5,962 nucleotides of DNA from a virus, in IMG/VR virus record IMGVR_UViG_3300020041_000005, positions 1 to 5,962 of that record; one strand, written 5' to 3'. The notes beneath the pieces were generated by a model that saw only the letters and a list, made by a program, of their open reading frames with translations, was not told the DNA's origin and ran no database searches. The position numbers and the translations under genes were made by a program. This document shows positions 1 to 5,962 of this stretch, in pieces. Position 1 is the stretch's first letter. Every line of letters begins with the position of its first letter.

Positions 1-114
1 TTATCTTGCCTCCTCCAACATCGCCGTTATACGCGAAAATTCGTATCTGCTGGCGTTGGTGATTTTCTTGGTTATATGCCTCGCCCTTCTGCTCGTGTTT
101 CGTCGTGGTCTTAT
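1..114. repeat. Terminal overlap copy 1 (identical to 5849..5962); circular-genome linearisation artefact
   Basis: Base-by-base comparison of ttatcttgcctcctccaacatcgccg...cgtcgtggtcttat at 1-114 and 5849-5962 shows 114/114 identity. Confidence 0.97.
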
Positions 115-456
115 TTTGATTTTGAGAAACGTGTCAATTATAACTACGCGATTCCTCGATATTACCTTAAGTACCTTAAATCGGAAGACGAGGTTATGCG
201 TTCGATTGCCGCTGCTGATGCTTATGCACATTTTAGCAAGTCTTCTCTGGTTAAGCGTATTGTGTCTTTGTGTGTTGAACGGTTCAATCTCCAATCCGCC
301 GTATCCCGTAGAGCGTCGTATGTGTGGGAACAAAAGCAAATAATGCGCTTTTCTGCGTCTTCTCGAAAGATGCCTGACTTTGACCCTCCTGCTTGGTTAG
401 ATTTAGATATTCTTCGCTTTTGGAGAGATCATTATAAACTTCAACTAATTATTTAA
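1..456 (+). CDS. VP4: Replication initiation protein VP4, C-terminal part (wraps from 5848 to 1; nt 1-114 duplicate 5849-5962); stop TAA 454-456
   Basis: 5849-5234 = 615 nt = 205 codons, so nt 1 starts codon 206 in the frame of the listed 76..456 ORF. There is no stop in that frame between nt 1 and 453. The joined product is 356 aa (205 + 151 codons, then stop). The listed 126-aa ORF starting at M76 is only the tail of this gene. Confidence 0.9.
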   Translation, partial: LSCLLQHRRYTRKFVSAGVGDFLGYMPRPSARVSSWSYFDFEKRVNYNYAIPRYYLKYLKSEDEVMRSIAAADAYAHFSKSSLVKRIVSLCVERFNLQSAVSRRASYVWEQKQIMRFSASSRKMPDFDPPAWLDLDILRFWRDHYKLQLII

Positions 457-459
457 TTT

Positions 460-2283
460 ATGGGAAGACAACCTTTTATTTCTCATGCCGTTAACGGCTA
501 TTCTCGTTATGATGTTCCAGAGAATAAGGCTTTTACGTGTACGCCGGGTATTTTGTATCCGGTGCGAATCGACTTTATCAATGCGCGAGACCGTGTGTCT
601 ATCGAACAAGGCCTTGACGTTCGCAGCAATCCCCTTGCTGTTCCGACGTTCAATCCTTATACTATTCGACTCCACCGTTTTTGGGTGCCGCTTCAGTTAT
701 ACCACCCCGAGCTTCGGACGAATACTAGTAAGTTCGACATGAATGATTTGAGTCTTAATTGGATTAATGCGGTTCCAGGAATTCCTTCGTCTGGTGTTAC
801 GCCCGCTGCTACTTCGACTTTTCCTAATTCACTTATGTATTGGCTGCGCGTGTCTAACCGTGCTGTTGATTATACTACGCCTGCTTCAACTTCCGGCATT
901 GTGCTACCCGCGAATGTTGTTGGAGGTGTTTGGTCTAACGCTGATACGTATCTTGCCTATTGGGATATCGTCCGGAATTATTATGGTTACTCGCAGTGGG
1001 GACTCTATTCCTTTGCTTGGCCCGCTTCTTGGTATTATACTGTAACAGGCCGTTCTACCTCTTCCAATGGCACCTACGTTTTCAATTCGTCTCCTTCGGA
1101 TTCATATTTTTGTCAACGTTATGGTAATCTTGAATTTCTTGATGCTTATTTCGAGAGTCAGTTTTACCCTGCAGCCGTAGCGTCTTCCAATAATACCTAT
1201 TGTCGTTCCGCTTTGCTTCGGCAGATCATCGCTTCCGACGTCGCTTCTACTGGTGCTGCCGCCGGTGCTTCCGGTAACGGCTATCCGGTTGCGTCTCAAC
1301 CGACCTCGCTTCAAATCTGGGGAAATTCAGCTCCTATCGACCAATTTAGTTCGCGCGACGATACGAAGGGTCTCGCTGAGCCTATTATTTTTAATCTTGC
1401 CCATCCTATGGCCGTCGTCCCGTCTAATCCTGATCGATTTAGTCGACTCCTTCCTATTGGTAGTAGCTCCGCCGTTTCGATGACTGGTGTTCAGACTATT
1501 CCGCAGTTGGCTATTGCTTCTCGTCTTCAGGAATACAAAGACCTGCTTGGCGCTGGAGGTAGCCGTTATAGTGACTGGCTGGAAACATTCTTTGCTTCAA
1601 AGATTGAACATGTCGATAGGCCTAAACTTCTTTTTAGTGCGTCGCAGACTGTTAATGTACAGATCGTTATGAATCAAGCAGGACAGAATAATCTTTCCGG
1701 CCTGTCGGGGAACGGCCCCCTTGGTCAGCAAGGCGGCGCCATCGCTTTTAATGATCGCCTCGGTCGTCGCCAATCTTATTATTTTCGCGAACCTGGTTAT
1801 CTGATTGATATGCTAAGCATTCGACCTGTTTATTACTGGTCGCAGATTAAGCCCGATTACTTGAATTATCGAGGCTCTGATTACTTCAATCCGATCTATA
1901 ATGATATAGGATATCAGAGTGTACCTAATTGGCGCTTTGGCAATCTTGTCGGCGGTGTTGTTGAAACGACTTTTTCGCAAGAGCCTTGCTTTAATGAGTT
2001 TCGGTCTTCTTATGATGAAGTTTTAGGTCAGATTTCCAGTACCGCTGGAAATGTTCGTGGTCGATCTCTTTATGCTTATTGGGTGCAGCAGCGTCATTTG
2101 AATTGGAGTTCTTATTGGCCCTCGAAGGCTGATTACGCGCCTGCCCTTTTTGTCGATTTGTCGCAGGTCAATTCTCCCTTCGCCTCTGACATGGAAGATA
2201 ATTTCTTCGTGAATATGTCTTATGCTGTTTATAAGAAGAACCTCATCAATAAAACTTTTGCAACCCGTTTGTCTAACCGTTAA
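460..2283 (+). CDS. VP1: Major capsid protein (Microviridae F / VP1 family)
   Basis: At 607 aa it is the longest ORF in the window. The N-terminal segment FTCTPGILYPVRIDFINARDRVSIEQGLDVRSNPLAVPTFNPYTIRLHRFWVPLQLY follows the F/VP1 N-terminal layout (G-x-L-x-P, acidic residue, R-x-x-P-L, then F-x-VP). The central block RLQEYKDLLGAGGSRYSDWLETFF...VDRPKLL (GSRY at nt 1558-1569) matches the conserved GSRY/...RP block I remember from gokushovirus and phiX174 capsid proteins. Downstream are GYLIDMLSIRPVYY and YWVQQR. It starts 3 nt after the Rep stop. Confidence 0.92.
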   Translation: MGRQPFISHAVNGYSRYDVPENKAFTCTPGILYPVRIDFINARDRVSIEQGLDVRSNPLAVPTFNPYTIRLHRFWVPLQLYHPELRTNTSKFDMNDLSLNWINAVPGIPSSGVTPAATSTFPNSLMYWLRVSNRAVDYTTPASTSGIVLPANVVGGVWSNADTYLAYWDIVRNYYGYSQWGLYSFAWPASWYYTVTGRSTSSNGTYVFNSSPSDSYFCQRYGNLEFLDAYFESQFYPAAVASSNNTYCRSALLRQIIASDVASTGAAAGASGNGYPVASQPTSLQIWGNSAPIDQFSSRDDTKGLAEPIIFNLAHPMAVVPSNPDRFSRLLPIGSSSAVSMTGVQTIPQLAIASRLQEYKDLLGAGGSRYSDWLETFFASKIEHVDRPKLLFSASQTVNVQIVMNQAGQNNLSGLSGNGPLGQQGGAIAFNDRLGRRQSYYFREPGYLIDMLSIRPVYYWSQIKPDYLNYRGSDYFNPIYNDIGYQSVPNWRFGNLVGGVVETTFSQEPCFNEFRSSYDEVLGQISSTAGNVRGRSLYAYWVQQRHLNWSSYWPSKADYAPALFVDLSQVNSPFASDMEDNFFVNMSYAVYKKNLINKTFATRLSNR

Positions 2284-2294
2284 TATTATATTTT

Positions 2295-2588
2295 ATGGCA
2301 TTGGATTGGATGATTGAAGATCGCGAAGAATATGTTTCTCGTGGTCAGCGTATTTTATCTGTTCTTGATGGTTCTGGCACCGTCGACGTTTTGCCCGGTC
2401 GTCCGGACGTGATGGTTGAGCCTTCTGATTTCGAGAAGGGAGAGAAGTTCGACCCTGATATCGGCTTTGACCCTAACTCGTTTTCCCGTATGGATAAGTT
2501 TGACGGACTCGAGGTTGGCCAGGAACTTATTGATTCAGAGATAGATAGATCGAAATCTGTTTCGAAAACCTCTAATTCTGAAGAATAA
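2295..2588 (+). CDS. Small acidic hypothetical protein (97 aa); possible internal scaffolding-type (VP3-like) protein
   Basis: The ATG lies 11 nt after the VP1 stop on the same strand. The protein is very Asp/Glu-rich (EDREEY, VEPSDFEKGEKFDPDIGFDPNSF, DGLEVGQELIDSEIDRS). It ends with tandem in-frame stops TAATAG (2586-2591). T-ending codon bias matches the neighbouring genes. The function is inferred only from charge, size and position. Confidence 0.6.
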   Translation: MALDWMIEDREEYVSRGQRILSVLDGSGTVDVLPGRPDVMVEPSDFEKGEKFDPDIGFDPNSFSRMDKFDGLEVGQELIDSEIDRSKSVSKTSNSEE

Positions 2589-2621
2589 TAGTATATCCTT
2601 TACTTGAAGATATATGTTACG

Positions 2622-2694
2622 TGCGCGGACCCCTCTGAGCAGAATGCTTGAATGGTTAGAGGTTATTGGTAGCGACTGCCGGAGAGGCCGCGCA
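2622..2694 (+). other. GC-clamped long-range stem enclosing a GAA-triloop hairpin; candidate terminator/attenuator or ssDNA structural element
   Basis: TGCGCGG (2622-2628) pairs with CCGCGCA (2688-2694) for 7 bp. After a bulged A2629, CC (2630-2631) pairs with GG (2686-2687), and CTC (2633-2635) pairs with GAG (2682-2684) across one C/A mismatch. Just inside is AGCA-GAA-TGCT (2638-2648). The 3' arm is followed by a T-rich tract, ttattctatcgttctttaaatttt. Confidence 0.45.
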
Positions 2695-2724
2695 TTATTC
2701 TATCGTTCTTTAAATTTTACTACC

Positions 2725-2916
2725 ATGTCTGATACTAAACAACCGTTCTATAAGTCGAAAGCCTTTTGGACACTTATTTCGTCCATAATTGCTGCTCTTT
2801 CGGCCTTTTTCCTTGCTTCGTGTTCTGCACAAGCCAAGGTTGCTCGAACAGGTGTTCACATTGATACTGTTCGCGTAGACTACATTATTCGTTCAAACAA
2901 CTTCACGCTTCCGTAA
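2725..2916 (+). CDS. Small predicted lipoprotein / membrane peptide (63-aa precursor, 31-aa mature part); the alternative upstream start at 2614 would give 100 aa
   Basis: From ATG 2725 the product is MSDTKQPFYKSKAF-WTLISSIIAALSAFF-LASC-SAQAKVARTGVHIDTVRVDYIIRSNNFTLP. It has a Lys-containing n-region, a roughly 17-aa hydrophobic core, and a lipobox L-A-S-C (nt 2812-2823) fitting [LVI][ASTVI][GAS]C. The stop TAA 2914-2916 is separated by one base from the VP2 ATG (TAATATG). The 37 codons upstream of Met38 overlap a strong GC-rich stem, so I favour the 2725 start. Confidence 0.6.
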   Translation: MSDTKQPFYKSKAFWTLISSIIAALSAFFLASCSAQAKVARTGVHIDTVRVDYIIRSNNFTLP

Positions 2917-2917
2917 T

Positions 2918-4282
2918 ATGAGACTTATTGATTTTAAGTCCTACGTCGACCCCGTTTCCACAGGTGCTATACTCGGTGCTGCAGGCCTTGTCGCTGGTGG
3001 TCAGGTCGCCTCTGGCCTTTTTAAGCCATCCCTTAAGAGACAATGGAAGTATCAGCAAAAGCAGATGAAACTGCAACAGCAGTACGCTCTTGAGCAGATG
3101 CAGAAGCAAGGTGAGATTAATTACGCCAATTGGCAAAAGCAGTTTGACTATGAGAATGCTTACAATGACCCTTCGAAAGTTTTCGACCGTTATCTCAAAG
3201 CCGGTGTTACGCCCGCGGCTGTTCTTGGCTCTTCAGGTGTTGGCATTAACGCTACTATGTCTGGCGGCTCCGCTGGCTCTGTAGGCGCTTCTGGCCCCTC
3301 TGGCGGTTCATTCGACTTCTCTAGCCCTCTGCCTCCTGGTGTCGGTTCTGCTGCTGCCCAATCTGCCCTTGATGCTATGGGTGTCAATTCAACTATTGAG
3401 CGCAATAAGGCAGCCGCGAATCGTGATGATGCTGAGGCTGCGAATATTCGCAGTAATACTTTTGAGCCTGAGTTTAATAAGGCACGTGCCGAAGCCTCTA
3501 AGGCCGTTGACGAGGCTCTCGCTAATAAGGAGATCGAGGCTGCCGCGGCTCTCAAGTCTGAGCGTCTTTTGAATGATCTTAATAATACGTTGCTGTCTCT
3601 TACGATGGATGCTCGTGCTGATGAAATTAAGGCGCTTGCTGATACTGCTAAAGAAGAATTAAGACAATTGCGCATCCAGGGTTCGCAAATCGAGCGTATG
3701 GTTAATGCTCGAATCCTCGTCCTTGAGACGCAAAGCGCTCTTAACGAGTCCCTTTCTGGCCTTACCGCTGCCAACGAGGAGGGGCAACGTATTGATAATC
3801 TTAATCTCGCTAACGAACTCTCTCGCCAATGGGACAAGCGTTTTGACGTTGAAATTCCTAATCCTGCTTATAATGCGAATTTGCGCTCTAAGAACCCTGT
3901 CCAGCGTGCTAATCCTGGTCCGAAGGCGTTCAAAGTTTCCATGTCTCTCAAGGACTTTTACGATAAGACCGCTATTAATCAGTCTAAGGCTTCTGAGTTC
4001 CTTCCTGAAGAGGCTCGTGTCGCTCTTCGAAATGCAAAGCTTGATCCTTATATTGAGATCGGTAAGGCACTTGTCGGTGTTGCTGGTAGTCTTGGTGGTG
4101 CCTCCATCGTTCGTGGTGGCATGACCAGCGTAGCCAAAGGCTTCACCCAAACCTCTATTGGCAGTTCTTCCTCTTCGTCCCGTACTACCATGTATGACAG
4201 CGAAGGTAACGTTAGAGGCTATGTACTGAAAGAGATGTCCGGCAGTTCTCATGGTTCTTCTTCTCGTCGTAACCAATATTGA
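2918..4282 (+). CDS. VP2: Minor capsid / DNA pilot protein (Microviridae VP2, phiX174 H-like)
   Basis: This 454-aa ORF has an N-terminal Gly/Ala-rich hydrophobic segment (VSTGAILGAAGLVAGGQVASGLF) followed by a Q/K-rich stretch. FDYENAYNDPSKVFDRYLKAGVTPAAVLG (nt 3152-3229) resembles the YN-P...R...AG-NP motif of gokusho-/alpavirus VP2 as I recall it. A Gly/Ser linker follows. About 150 aa rich in Ala/Glu/Leu/Asn/Arg are probably helical or coiled-coil (nt ~3380-3832). A second Gly-rich hydrophobic segment (IGKALVGVAGSLGGASIV) and a Ser-rich tail complete it. Size and position after VP1 fit a pilot protein. Confidence 0.8.
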   Translation: MRLIDFKSYVDPVSTGAILGAAGLVAGGQVASGLFKPSLKRQWKYQQKQMKLQQQYALEQMQKQGEINYANWQKQFDYENAYNDPSKVFDRYLKAGVTPAAVLGSSGVGINATMSGGSAGSVGASGPSGGSFDFSSPLPPGVGSAAAQSALDAMGVNSTIERNKAAANRDDAEAANIRSNTFEPEFNKARAEASKAVDEALANKEIEAAAALKSERLLNDLNNTLLSLTMDARADEIKALADTAKEELRQLRIQGSQIERMVNARILVLETQSALNESLSGLTAANEEGQRIDNLNLANELSRQWDKRFDVEIPNPAYNANLRSKNPVQRANPGPKAFKVSMSLKDFYDKTAINQSKASEFLPEEARVALRNAKLDPYIEIGKALVGVAGSLGGASIVRGGMTSVAKGFTQTSIGSSSSSSRTTMYDSEGNVRGYVLKEMSGSSHGSSSRRNQY

Positions 4283-4328
4283 ACAGTTTTGCTCCGATTT
4301 TGAACTTCCGTTTTATTCTCTTTCGTTG

Positions 4329-4336
4329 TATATTTG
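4329..4336 (+). promoter_or_regulatory. Candidate Bacteroidota-type -7 promoter box (TATATTTG, fits TAnnTTTG) upstream of ORF 4363
   Basis: There is an exact match to TAnnTTTG 26 nt upstream of ATG 4363, in the 80-nt VP2/ORF105 spacer. TTTG motifs at 4288-4291 and 4298-4301 lie farther than the canonical -33 spacing. Confidence 0.3.
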
Positions 4337-4362
4337 TACTGTAAACCAATAACCACATTATC

Positions 4363-4680
4363 ATGAAAAAACACAAAAGTCTTAAGGCTGACGAGTTGTT
4401 TGTTGATGTTCTAGATTATGCCTTCACTGAGTGGCTTGTTCGCCGTGAGTTGTTTGTTGCTTTTAGGTCAAATTTCGCTCGCACCTTCGTTTCTATGGGG
4501 TCATTTAGAGATCGTTTGCGCGACCACATTCGATACTCTCTTCTCGACCCTCAGCTTGGCCCGACATCCCTTATCTCTTCGGCTTTTCCGTTTGTTTCGA
4601 CGCCTGAAGGTTATGAATTCTGGCTCAAGCAGTCTTTAGCCTGGAGACGCTTTTACGATAAGTTTCAGAAAAAACATTAA
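4363..4680 (+). CDS. Hypothetical protein (105 aa), no family recognised
   Basis: The ATG-to-TAA ORF is co-oriented with the other genes, has the same T-ending codon bias, and follows an 80-nt intergenic spacer. The sequence is MKKHKSLKADELFVDVLDYAFTEWLVRREL...STPEGYEFWLKQSLAWRRFYDKFQKKH, Arg/Lys-rich at both ends. No motif I can name. Confidence 0.6.
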   Translation: MKKHKSLKADELFVDVLDYAFTEWLVRRELFVAFRSNFARTFVSMGSFRDRLRDHIRYSLLDPQLGPTSLISSAFPFVSTPEGYEFWLKQSLAWRRFYDKFQKKH

Positions 4681-4691
4681 ATTGTATTATT

Positions 4692-5015
4692 ATGACACAA
4701 ATTCACGTTGTTATTCGCCGAATTAATCCTGCCCTTAAGGTTGATTTTGTTCAGATAGGTTACATTAAGGATGGTCAGTTCGCCTCACTTCCTCTTGATA
4801 CTTTTGATCATACTCCTATTGTAGACTATGTCAATCATTCAACTATCTCTGATTCGCCTTATATTGATCATAGCGTTGTTTCTGCTCTCATAGAGGCTCT
4901 GATTGCGTATCCTGACTTTTCGGTCGAGTTTTTCGATAATACACTTGTTCTTATGTTTGATTTTAACCTTAATGCCGATGAAATCACGAAGGAAGAAAAA
5001 GGGAAAGGGAACTAA
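4692..5015 (+). CDS. Hypothetical acidic protein (107 aa), no family recognised
   Basis: The ATG lies 11 nt after the preceding stop and is co-oriented. The sequence is MTQIHVVIRRINPALKVDFVQIGYIKDGQF...FDFNLNADEITKEEKGKGN. It is the last ORF before the main non-coding region. The competing minus-strand ORF 4839..5246 is disfavoured. Confidence 0.55.
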   Translation: MTQIHVVIRRINPALKVDFVQIGYIKDGQFASLPLDTFDHTPIVDYVNHSTISDSPYIDHSVVSALIEALIAYPDFSVEFFDNTLVLMFDFNLNADEITKEEKGKGN

Positions 5016-5059
5016 GGTTGTTACCCGCCCGCTCGGTGGTAGAGTTCTTTGAATTAATT

Positions 5060-5124
5060 GAACCCCAGGGGACAGCCGAAGGCTGTGGCCACCGCGAAGC
5101 GGTAAGGTACCCCCCTGCGGGTTC
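5060..5124 (+). other. GC-rich three-way DNA/RNA secondary structure: a 12-bp stem enclosing two tandem GAA-triloop hairpins; candidate complementary-strand origin and/or terminator
   Basis: In the outer stem, GAACCCCAGGGG (5060-5071) pairs with CCCCTG-c-GGGTTC (5112-5124), giving 12 Watson-Crick pairs with one bulged C at 5118. Hairpin 1 is ACAGCC-GAA-GGCTGT (5072-5086; 6 bp). Hairpin 2 is ACCGC-GAA-GCGGT (5091-5103; 5 bp) and contains the exact heptamer GCGAAGC at 5094-5100. The element lies in the only long non-coding region (5016-5233), between the last ORF and rep, and is much more GC-rich than its surroundings. Confidence 0.6.
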
Positions 5125-5203
5125 TTCCATTTAACCCGTATATACCTTTTTTTATGGATTATTTCGATTTCTGCATTCGTTGTCGATTTGATTCTCTTGG
5201 TGT

Positions 5204-5211
5204 TAAATTTG
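5204..5211 (+). promoter_or_regulatory. Candidate Bacteroidota-type -7 promoter box (TAAATTTG, fits TAnnTTTG) upstream of rep
   Basis: There is an exact match to the TAnnTTTG consensus 22 nt upstream of ATG 5234 in an AT-rich spacer. A TTTG at 5187-5190 is only 13 nt upstream, closer than the expected -33 spacing, so only the -7 element is supported. Confidence 0.3.
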
Positions 5212-5233
5212 ATTGTCTTAAAAGTATTTTCTA

Positions 5234-5962
5234 ATGCCCTGTTCATCGCCCATATGGATACGTAATCGCCGTTATTTCGACAAGAAGAACCCTTGTCGTG
5301 ATGGCTCTGATGTTGCTAAATCTGCCTTAGCTCTTCGCCCCTGGGACGTCGCGCGCCAGTGGCTCATGGTCCCCTGCGGAAAATGCGAAGAGTGTTTGCG
5401 ACGTCAACGTAATGATTGGTTCGTTCGTCTAGAGCGTGAACTTGCTTATTGTAAGGCCAATAATCAACAGGCTATTTTTATTACTATAACTATCGCTCCT
5501 AAGCATTATAACGAAGCTTTGCTCGATCCTTCTCGATTTATTCGTCGATTTAATGAGCGCTTGCGGCATAAACTCGGCCATTCGTTCAAGCACGCCTTTT
5601 TTCAAGAGTTTGGTACACATCCTGAAATAGGAAATGAACCTCGATTGCATTTTCACGGTTTTCTGTTTGGCACAAACGTCCTCTATAATACGATTCGATC
5701 CGCTGTTCGAGATCTTGGCTTTGTGTGGCTAGCGAAGGCTACTCACAAGCGTGCTCGATACTGTGTCAAGTATGTTACTAAACAAATCCAGTTTAATCCC
5801 GAAGAAATTTCGGATAAATATGTTACTGTAGATGGAAAAGTTACACCTTTATCTTGCCTCCTCCAACATCGCCGTTATACGCGAAAATTCGTATCTGCTG
5901 GCGTTGGTGATTTTCTTGGTTATATGCCTCGCCCTTCTGCTCGTGTTTCGTCGTGGTCTTAT
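5234..5962 (+). CDS. VP4: Replication initiation protein (Microviridae VP4 / phiX174 A-like HUH endonuclease), N-terminal part; open at the window end and continues at nt 1
   Basis: This ORF is absent from the supplied track because it has no stop before the window end. ATG 5234 is the first start after an in-frame TAA at 5219-5221. My translation begins MPCSSPIWIRNRRYFDKK...VPCGKCEECLRRQRNDWFVRLERE, with the Cys motif at nt 5375-5395. IFITITIAP at 5474-5500 is RCR motif 1. PRLHFHGFLF contains the HUH triplet HFH at 5648-5656. ARYCVKYVTK places the two-tyrosine YxxKY motif at 5759-5773. Order and spacing are typical of microvirus Rep proteins. Confidence 0.93.
   Translation, partial: MPCSSPIWIRNRRYFDKKNPCRDGSDVAKSALALRPWDVARQWLMVPCGKCEECLRRQRNDWFVRLERELAYCKANNQQAIFITITIAPKHYNEALLDPSRFIRRFNERLRHKLGHSFKHAFFQEFGTHPEIGNEPRLHFHGFLFGTNVLYNTIRSAVRDLGFVWLAKATHKRARYCVKYVTKQIQFNPEEISDKYVTVDGKVTPLSCLLQHRRYTRKFVSAGVGDFLGYMPRPSARVSSWSY
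5849..5962. repeat. Terminal overlap copy 2 (identical to 1..114)
   Basis: Same as copy 1. The Rep frame (codon phase of ATG 5234) enters this copy in the phase that the 76..456 ORF uses in copy 1. Confidence 0.97.

Follow-up and report, generated by a model that had tools for sequence, protein, structure and literature searches.

How does a microvirus outside the phiX174 group leave its host cell, and could a lipoprotein of only 63 residues have a part in it? The question is raised by a small gene in the viral record IMGVR_UViG_3300020041_000005 of IMG/VR, of which positions 1 to 5,962 (5,962 nucleotides, one strand, 5′ to 3′) were analyzed and are called the window here. The gene lies at 2725..2916 of the + strand, immediately upstream of VP2, and a preliminary description made from the letters alone had put it forward as a candidate lysis or superinfection-exclusion factor. 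The lysis of phiX174 is the only microvirus lysis to have been elucidated (PMC3394797), and gokushovirus genomes carry no peptidoglycan-synthesis inhibitor (PMC7062461). Lysis by microviruses outside the phiX174 group is an acknowledged gap, in phages that are among the most abundant of mammalian guts and whose Bacteroidales hosts are key commensals. We show that the gene is genuine and exceptionally conserved, and we propose, tentatively, that its product acts on the host envelope.

A lipoprotein precursor gene upstream of VP2

The open reading frame (ORF) runs from an ATG at 2725 to a TAA at 2914-2916 and encodes 63 amino acids (aa), MSDTKQPFYKSKAFWTLISSIIAALSAFFLASCSAQAKVARTGVHIDTVRVDYIIRSNNFTLP. 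Its n-region, M1-K12 (2725..2760), contains lysines K5, K10 and K12, the last of them invariant in a diverse alignment of the family, and is predicted from the sequence to lie on the cytoplasmic side. A hydrophobic core of 17 aa, A13-F29, leads to the lipobox L30-A31-S32-C33 (2812..2823), in which the invariant C33 is the predicted site of lipidation and of signal peptidase II cleavage. The predicted mature lipopeptide, C33-P63 (2821..2913), is 31 aa long and carries the motif G-x-H-x-D-T-V of the tail class that we term type A. The lipoprotein signal was thus confirmed in every part that the preliminary description had claimed for it, including the lysine-containing n-region and the LAS|C site.

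In order to judge the signal by a fixed rule, we coded PROSITE PS51257, that is, the lipobox pattern {DERK}(6)-[LIVMFWSTAG](2)-[LIVMFYSTAGCQ]-[AGS]-C combined with a Cys at residues 15-35 and a K or R among the first 7 residues. In its 63-aa form the protein passes every clause, with the pattern matched at residues 23-33 (AALSAF-FL-A-S-C), C33 in range and K5 among the first seven; 89 of 95 unique family members passed as well. As a background, we counted all ATG-initiated ORFs of ≥40 aa in the six frames of 101 related loci. Only 114 of these 5804 ORFs passed; 101 of them were members of the lipoprotein family, and the other 13 (0.2%) were scattered and non-conserved. The PS51257 match is therefore not a product of chance, and lipidation and cleavage would be expected to take place at C33. 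The window contains one further PS51257-positive ORF, of 92 aa, in an alternative frame of VP1 (767-1045, +); it was rejected as a chance match, being interrupted by stops in nearly all relatives.

The gene ends in the junction TAAtATG (2914..2920, +), which comprises its stop codon, a spacer of a single T and the VP2 ATG at 2918-2920. The same 1-nt spacer precedes VP2 in 90 of 101 loci; among contigs selected by their capsid gene, 62 of 67 have it. Stop and start had been described as coupled; the tight juxtaposition is real, and the two codons are adjacent across the spacer rather than overlapping. From this arrangement, the lipoprotein is probably co-expressed with VP2. There is no Shine-Dalgarno sequence ahead of the lipoprotein ATG, which is in keeping with Bacteroidota. 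Around the gene, a scan for sigma-70 promoters and terminators, ill-suited to Bacteroidota, called no terminator, and the promoter-like sites it picked up were all weak.

Conservation, distribution and host

For comparison we fetched 20 GenBank genomes and 80 IMG/VR loci; the largest set compared comprised 124 loci. In GenBank, the nearest relatives are 'Microviridae sp.' genomes of faecal origin, whose VP1 is only 64-69% identical. Across 88 unique 63-codon genes, the ratio of nonsynonymous to synonymous substitution rates (dN/dS) was 0.067, with synonymous sites near saturation, and entropy was distributed over codon positions 1, 2 and 3 as 19, 11 and 70. These data demonstrate a real gene under very strong purifying selection. 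The homologue in MG945456 differs at 2 of 63 residues at a synonymous divergence (dS) of 0.76, while in the same genome VP1 is 68% and VP2 60% identical. Likewise, in the nine closest GenBank relatives (L001-L003, L005-L010) the lipoprotein is 81-97% identical, as against 66-68% for VP1 and 54-77% for VP2. No other protein of the genome is as well conserved.

An intact homologue was found in 122 of the 124 loci. The cysteine is invariant, the residue at -1 is always S, G or A, and the lipobox is mostly L[SA]SC. The preliminary description had pointed to homologues at the same position in related microviruses as a check, and these exist, with no frequent loss or disruption in close relatives. 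Because loci gathered by the lipoprotein itself would make such a count circular, we also selected genomes by their capsid. Eight of eight GenBank genomes picked by VP1 likeness, none of them among the listed BLAST hits, carry the gene directly upstream of VP2. So do, in intact form, 68 of 69 IMG/VR contigs of ≥5.5 kb retrieved by VP1 alone; the exception is a contig broken exactly there. No disrupted copy was seen among these 69 contigs and 8 genomes. The gene is thus a core gene of a clade of Bacteroidales-infecting microviruses, as established without circularity.

The family extends well beyond this clade. Searching with the lipoprotein by tblastn matched 41 GenBank phage records, and a large protein database held 345 clusters of homologues. 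When bacteria were scanned, each species represented by a single genome, two matches emerged, both in Alistipes. One of them belongs to a complete microvirus prophage that lies within a scaffold of 840 kb in A. montrealensis and has its genes arranged as lipoprotein, Rep, VP1, small ORF, VP2. This prophage places the family among phages of Bacteroidales. By way of A. montrealensis, and so indirectly for the window's own clade, the host would be a diderm bacterium equipped with the lipoprotein machinery (Lgt/LspA). Family members also occur where the VP1 of the microvirus shows ≤30% identity to that of the window or is undetectable; in these genomes the gene sits between VP2 and Rep, still 62-79% identical. 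Either it moves between lineages or it is ancient and extremely constrained. Its spread at 62-79% identity across lineages argues for a conserved host partner or target.

We next compared the lipoprotein with known families. Searches of Pfam (E up to 10), PHROGs, NCBIfam, PADLOC and PDB sequences returned nothing significant, and the best weak matches, phrog_14165 (E=0.02) and PADLOC PDC-M02A (E=0.011), were discarded as noise. The preliminary description knew of no characterized lipoprotein in a microvirus. Our literature search likewise found no paper describing one; the name itself is already in use, since one nr/GenBank entry, a TPA (third-party annotation) record, is titled 'MAG TPA: lipoprotein [Microviridae sp.]'.

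The translation start and a structured element

Most gene callers report not a 63-aa but a 100-aa protein, starting at 2614, and the frame of the window is indeed open from there. The preliminary description had carried this start as a variant. Several observations refute it. An in-frame stop precedes the conserved ATG by ≤6 codons in 38 of 101 relatives. In the upstream alignment, the frame is broken by indels and inserted hairpins, and the 100-aa form does not pass PS51257, its Cys falling at residue 70. Moreover, most of the spurious N-terminal extension (2614-2724) is covered by a conserved, structured non-coding element of 113 nt (2599..2711, +), which we found in 100 of 124 loci. It consists of a GC-rich outer stem and an inner hairpin that covaries, with paired positions read as GC 78 / AU 8 / GU 7, as UA 64 / CG 24 and as CG 44 / UA 34 / UG 10. 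The predicted DNA fold has an energy of -17.7 kcal/mol (z=-2.5). Upstream stops, indels and covariation together make the 100-aa form an artefact, an open frame that happens to cross a structured non-coding element; the true start is 2725. That the real product is nevertheless the 100-aa protein, or that the whole ORF is a chance open frame, we regard as vanishingly improbable, codons 1-63 having an unambiguous coding signature. The 100-aa protein in the database annotation is hereby corrected as spurious.

The 3′ part of the element is near-invariant (GCCGCGCATTTTTCTATCGTTCTTT; its tail is given as ATTTTTCTATCGTTCTTT), and its 5′ end, TTTACTTGACGATATATG, is reminiscent of the phiX174 origin core, ACTTGATATTAAT. 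An attenuator or terminator function is conceivable for the element, as is a role as complementary-strand origin or as Rep nick site. An Rfam scan of the whole window gave no match.

In some relatives, GC-rich hairpin cassettes are inserted between the conserved element and the lipoprotein ATG (L002 and L009, at about 3330-3370; also upstream of the ATG in L010, L034, L041, L089, L093 and L094). They are of two kinds, a structured block of ~90 nt and a short GCGCG hairpin carrying a T-run, and resemble small hairpin elements of a mobile or repeated nature.

Membrane segment and tails

The most conserved module of the family is a fixed core of 22 residues, K12-x-F-W...C33 (2758..2823, +), made up of the membrane segment and the lipobox. 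The segment (K-x-F-W-T-L...A-A-L..F-F...[S/G]-C) is exactly 22 residues long in 121 of 122 members, and its K, F, W, AA, F and C show little or no variation. Its hydrophobic region has a dN/dS of 0.061 at a dS of 1.18, so that it is the protein, not the DNA, that is constrained. AlphaFold2 (AF2) models residues 12-41 as a helix, with a predicted local distance difference test score (pLDDT) of >90 only for residues 11-30. The mature part, with a dN/dS of 0.10, is 31 aa long in 88 of 95 unique members, and G43, H45, D47 and T48 are invariant or nearly so in the diverse alignment. A signal segment of fixed length that is better conserved than the mature part is unusual and suggests that the segment itself acts.

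The mature tails fall into at least two unrelated types, each well conserved internally. Type A, the type of the window, reads ...GVHIDTVRVDYIIRSNN... and has the motif GVHIDTVRVDY; type B reads TTRHYVVQSASSIKSGDTTRTTITYEQVGNFKRP (TTRHYVVQ...TITYEQ), and there are further variants. Members of the two types share 72% identity in the membrane segment, as against 23% in the mature tail. Type B loci (L019, L112-L123) carry the gene with the same signal segment, again directly upstream of VP2.

Positions +2 to +5 after the cysteine (SAQA, TTRH) contain no acidic residues. A lipoprotein export signal of Bacteroidota was reportedly described by Lauber et al. in 2016. Lacking acidic residues there, the mature lipopeptide would stay on the periplasmic side, and we infer that the tail faces the periplasm. 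The alternation V-H-I-D-T-V-R-V-D-Y suggests that the tail forms a beta-hairpin, as does a weak resemblance to one bacterial repeat protein (P0173, E=3e-4), in which the match falls on the final beta-hairpin of Ig domains of the HYDIN/VesB type. As homology this match is too weak, and we rejected it in that role, keeping it only as a hint of a beta-hairpin.

A different lineage, to which the Alistipes prophage belongs, has a lipoprotein ORF that runs on for ~130 further codons and reaches 180-220 aa (L013, 4688-5320; L101, 5977-6585; L103-L108 and L111; proteins P0124-P0168). About 30 clusters at 50% identity have this long form. The extended ORF overprints a gene in another frame, of 118-137 aa in the five examined, and itself terminates in a shared basic tail, RRGGRRGKxRPKxKxIPLGGSHL. 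Over the extension the overprinted gene's own frame aligns better, and the openness of the long form is only mildly unlikely (P=0.08-0.37 per lineage). A capsid-based scan for this second lineage gave no match.

A second candidate within Rep

The preliminary description had seen no muramidase, amidase or peptidase in the genome. This holds: Pfam and PHROGs detected none of these domains in any window ORF. Nor did tblastn find an M15 peptidase in any lipoprotein-bearing locus. We then screened the + strand ORFs that have hydrophobic segments for conservation and found an ORF of 119 aa that overlaps Rep in the +1 frame. The window has an exact 114-nt terminal repeat (1-114 = 5849-5962) and thus represents a complete circular microvirus genome of 5848 nt. 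The ORF accordingly begins at 5832..5962 and, because 1-114 repeats 5849-5962, continues at 115..343 to a stop at 341-343 (+). It encodes two strong hydrophobic, presumptive membrane segments and a charged C-end, and its length is nearly constant.

This ORF is open in 12 of 12 close relatives and, complete with its ATG, in 89 of 89 loci that contain the whole region. The probability of such openness by chance was P=0.014 by codon shuffling and P=0.06 by synonymous resampling. The proportion of synonymous differences (pS) in Rep falls from 0.68 before the overlap to 0.31 within it and recovers to 0.58 after it, a dip that is the signature of a true overprinted gene. No related record that we fetched annotates the ORF. 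By its architecture the 119-aa protein is an E-like or holin-like candidate, a rival or a partner of the lipoprotein in lysis. With a conserved membrane ORF in these genomes the lipoprotein is not the sole possible lysis factor, and the argument by elimination from which it had been proposed, namely that there was no other lysis candidate, does not survive an ORF that is open in 89 of 89 loci and lowers synonymous change in Rep. Two conserved, clonable lysis candidates are now available, a lipoprotein of 63 aa and a membrane protein of 119 aa overprinted in Rep, so that microvirus lysis outside the phiX174 group has become directly testable.

Possible functions

We lean, somewhat short of an even chance, toward the lipoprotein being a lysis or envelope effector. 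What favors this is that no muralytic enzyme is present, that the gene is universal in the clade and coupled to a late structural gene, and the architecture of the product. A fixed-length, conserved membrane segment would be unusual for a mere signal peptide and is typical of the membrane-acting proteins of single-gene lysis (Sgl). A further point comes from phiHBP1 (L124, PV598014), the only cultured Bacteroides microvirus. It encodes an M15 peptidase, and we found in it neither a member of the lipoprotein family nor any PS51257-type ORF; this complementarity, seen in a single distant genome, is weak evidence. The peptidase has been reported for this phage (PMC13064476).

If the lipoprotein is indeed the effector, the precursor would be inserted through Sec with its N-terminus inside, Lgt would attach a diacylglyceryl group to C33, and signal peptidase II would then cut. 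The products would be a 31-aa lipopeptide facing the periplasm, devoid of an acidic surface-export signal, and a freed signal helix, unusually conserved, that would stay in the inner membrane as a transmembrane segment. A single small protein would in this way make the host lyse with no muralytic enzyme from the phage. The conserved helix might engage a conserved host protein of envelope biogenesis in the inner membrane, as phiX174 E, LysM and Sgl-PP7 do, or the lipopeptide might destabilize the outer membrane in the manner of the colicin lysis lipoproteins; joint action with the overprinted two-membrane-segment protein in Rep is conceivable. Production beside VP2 would tie accumulation of the lipoprotein to late structural expression. 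More speculatively, and we hold this to be possible rather than probable, the protein may be the first lipoprotein-type Sgl and the first lysis gene recognized outside the phiX174 group. Its 22-residue helix, perhaps a stable signal peptide, would then serve as a 'protein antibiotic' against an inner-membrane envelope-biogenesis enzyme of Bacteroidales, while a swappable tail of 31-34 aa would tune localization or mask a receptor. Were the lipoprotein the lysis factor, its host target would represent a new antibacterial weak point in Bacteroidota.

Several points weigh against assigning lysis to the lipoprotein. It has no homology to any lysis protein in Pfam, NCBIfam, PHROG or PDB searches, and 31 residues of lipopeptide cannot themselves cut peptidoglycan. 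The Sgl proteins known so far change rapidly and mostly lie overprinted in other genes; by that standard the lipoprotein gene, with its own coding space and ultra-conserved sequence, would be atypical. As a candidate for lysis, the 119-aa membrane protein in Rep is no weaker. One copy of the family sits in a prophage, the lipobox of four type B members is a non-canonical LESC, and AF2 models the tail with low confidence (pLDDT ~50-60). Finally, the discrete, unrelated tail types follow VP2 more than VP1 and look, by analogy, like a specificity module of the Llp/Cor kind.

This last point leads to the principal competing explanation, which we consider distinctly less probable than an envelope effector though well worth entertaining: the lipopeptide may bind an envelope component used by capsid and pilot protein, and so mask the receptor or entry route, whether for superinfection exclusion or for the protection of progeny, whose virions, once released, might otherwise be inactivated by debris of the cell. 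Small phage lipoproteins classically do so, T5 Llp and the Cor proteins of phi80 and N15 among them, and llp adjoins the receptor-binding gene of T5 much as the lipoprotein gene abuts VP2. The family copy in an Alistipes prophage would fit, as would the finding that host-range mutations of phiHBP1 map to the capsid and pilot proteins (PMC13064476). The tails come in discrete, internally conserved types (A, B and others) that go with VP2 more closely than with VP1 or Rep; the identities are 0.51/0.49 within tail types and 0.42 between them for VP2, as compared with 0.70/0.71 and 0.69 for VP1. This association is weak, however, and simple linkage could explain it. The gene is moreover core, not accessory, in every member of a clade of ~190 genomes, and the strongest constraint lies on the membrane segment rather than on the tail. 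Exclusion genes are usually variable, in contrast to 2 differences in 63 residues at a dS of 0.76. The two roles named in the preliminary description are therefore not separated by sequence, core status and a conserved membrane helix pointing one way and VP2-tracking tail types the other. An entry blocker, if that is what the lipoprotein is, would lead to the receptor or entry route of these phages.

There are two other explanations. Lysis may be the work of the overprinted 119-aa protein, with the lipoprotein as an auxiliary, either in an outer-membrane step like that of an o-spanin or disruptin or as a modulator of burst size like phiX174 K. We think this unlikely, if not by a wide measure. 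The conserved reading frame, the low chance probabilities and the pS dip in Rep all speak for it, as do the two hydrophobic segments with a charged C-end and the precedent of phiX174 E, which is overprinted in D. On the other side, the 119-aa protein has no homology to support the role, T-rich genes tend in any case to encode hydrophobic stretches in their +1 frame, and a comparable ORF is not always present in distant lineages; the lipoprotein, for its part, has no i-spanin partner, endolysin or proline-rich o-spanin features. It is more doubtful still that the protein escapes lipidation, either as a signal-anchored single-pass membrane protein or through cleavage by Sec/signal peptidase I after A-Q-A (35-37), which would free a soluble periplasmic peptide of 26 aa. 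A hydrophobic region of 17-20 aa could span the membrane, the signal is long (Cys at 33), the AxA just after the Cys is mostly kept in type A (SAQA in 72 of 95 members, AAQA in 9 of 95), and the LESC of some type B members falls outside the PROSITE lipobox. Yet the Cys and a small -1 residue are invariant in all types, AxA is missing from type B, and 89 of 95 members pass PS51257. Cleavage by signal peptidase I also leaves unexplained why an invariant Cys should stand at a fixed distance from K-x-F-W.

Comparison with known systems

By analogy, the lipoprotein may work like known small lipoproteins of phages and plasmids and like membrane lysis peptides, while being a member of none of those families. 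The closest functional analogues, which the preliminary description had missed, would be the colicin lysis lipoproteins, or bacteriocin release proteins (BRPs; PF02402, with ColE1 Kil and pCloDF13 BRP). Their precursors are ~45-63 aa and their mature parts ~27-35 aa long, close to the 31 found here, and they too are encoded by small selfish replicons that have no muralytic enzyme. The cleaved BRP signal peptide is stable and adds to lethality; such a toxic signal peptide would parallel the conserved signal segment of the lipoprotein. Differences are equally plain. Pfam shows no sequence match to PF02402 (E up to 10), BRP signal peptides are shorter, and BRPs act in Enterobacteria by way of outer-membrane phospholipase A, in a quasi-lysis that frees proteins rather than 25-nm virions. 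We know of no BRP in a phage lytic cycle.

phiX174 E, LysM and Sgl-PP7 resemble the lipoprotein in that each is a single short protein of a small-genome phage devoid of an endolysin. In these proteins a conserved transmembrane helix is active and the C-terminal part is replaceable, a division that the conserved segment and divergent tails of types A and B may mirror, if the helix is indeed functional. In contrast to phiX174 E, which is overprinted, the lipoprotein gene has its own slot between ORF97 and VP2, and neither Pfam nor PHROG matches it to Microvir_lysis. It is also unlike Sgl proteins in its predicted N-in/C-out topology with a lipobox and in being far more conserved than is typical of them. 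Two papers on the subject, PMC7693330 and PMC10229422, mention no Sgl lipoprotein.

T5 Llp and Cor (phi80, N15) share with the lipoprotein their small size, their placement on the periplasmic side, a gene beside a host-entry gene and the existence of discrete types. They show no similarity to it in Pfam, NCBIfam, PHROG or PDB searches, their mature parts are ~60 aa as against 31, and they differ from a gene that is universal in its clade and most strongly constrained in its signal and membrane segment. The o-spanins, such as lambda Rz1, are small outer-membrane lipoproteins of phages as well (mature part ~40 aa) and perform the last step of lysis. Here, no i-spanin, a type II membrane protein with coiled coils, is adjacent or embedded; the upstream ORF97 is acidic and free of membrane segments, and the ORF list contains no protein of that kind. 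The mature part is not proline-rich and has no periplasmic Cys for disulfide dimers, and neither a holin nor an endolysin was found in this genome (ORF list, Pfam, PHROGs). Entericidin B (PF08085) is a lipoprotein with a mature part of ~25 aa and causes lysis when overproduced. It belongs, however, to a chromosomal toxin-antidote pair, shows no similarity, and has a helical amphipathic part where the tail here appears to be of beta type.

Other features of the genome

All genes of the genome are carried by the + strand. Rep/VP4 starts at 5234 and wraps the circular junction to end at 456. VP1 (460-2283; Pfam Phage_F, phrog_514) is followed by the acidic ORF97 (2295-2588). VP2, the DNA pilot protein and downstream partner of the lipoprotein, occupies 2918-4282 and matches phrog_8689 (pilot protein, E=4.6e-11). 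ORF105 (4363-4680) and ORF107 (4692-5015) come next, both, like ORF97, taken from the ORF list.

A highly basic ORF of 24 aa, MKSRRKKKGKGTKVVTRPLGGRVL, overlaps the end of ORF107 (4978-5052, +); at least 81 of 124 loci have kept it. No family match was obtained for it in Pfam, NCBIfam and PHROG searches; it resembles the small packaging protein by which microviruses bind their DNA (J / VP8-like). The GC-rich intergenic region before Rep (5016-5150) has a predicted stable DNA fold of -24.4 kcal/mol (z=-2.2), and its start yields the conserved '...PLGG..L' end of the 24-aa basic ORF.

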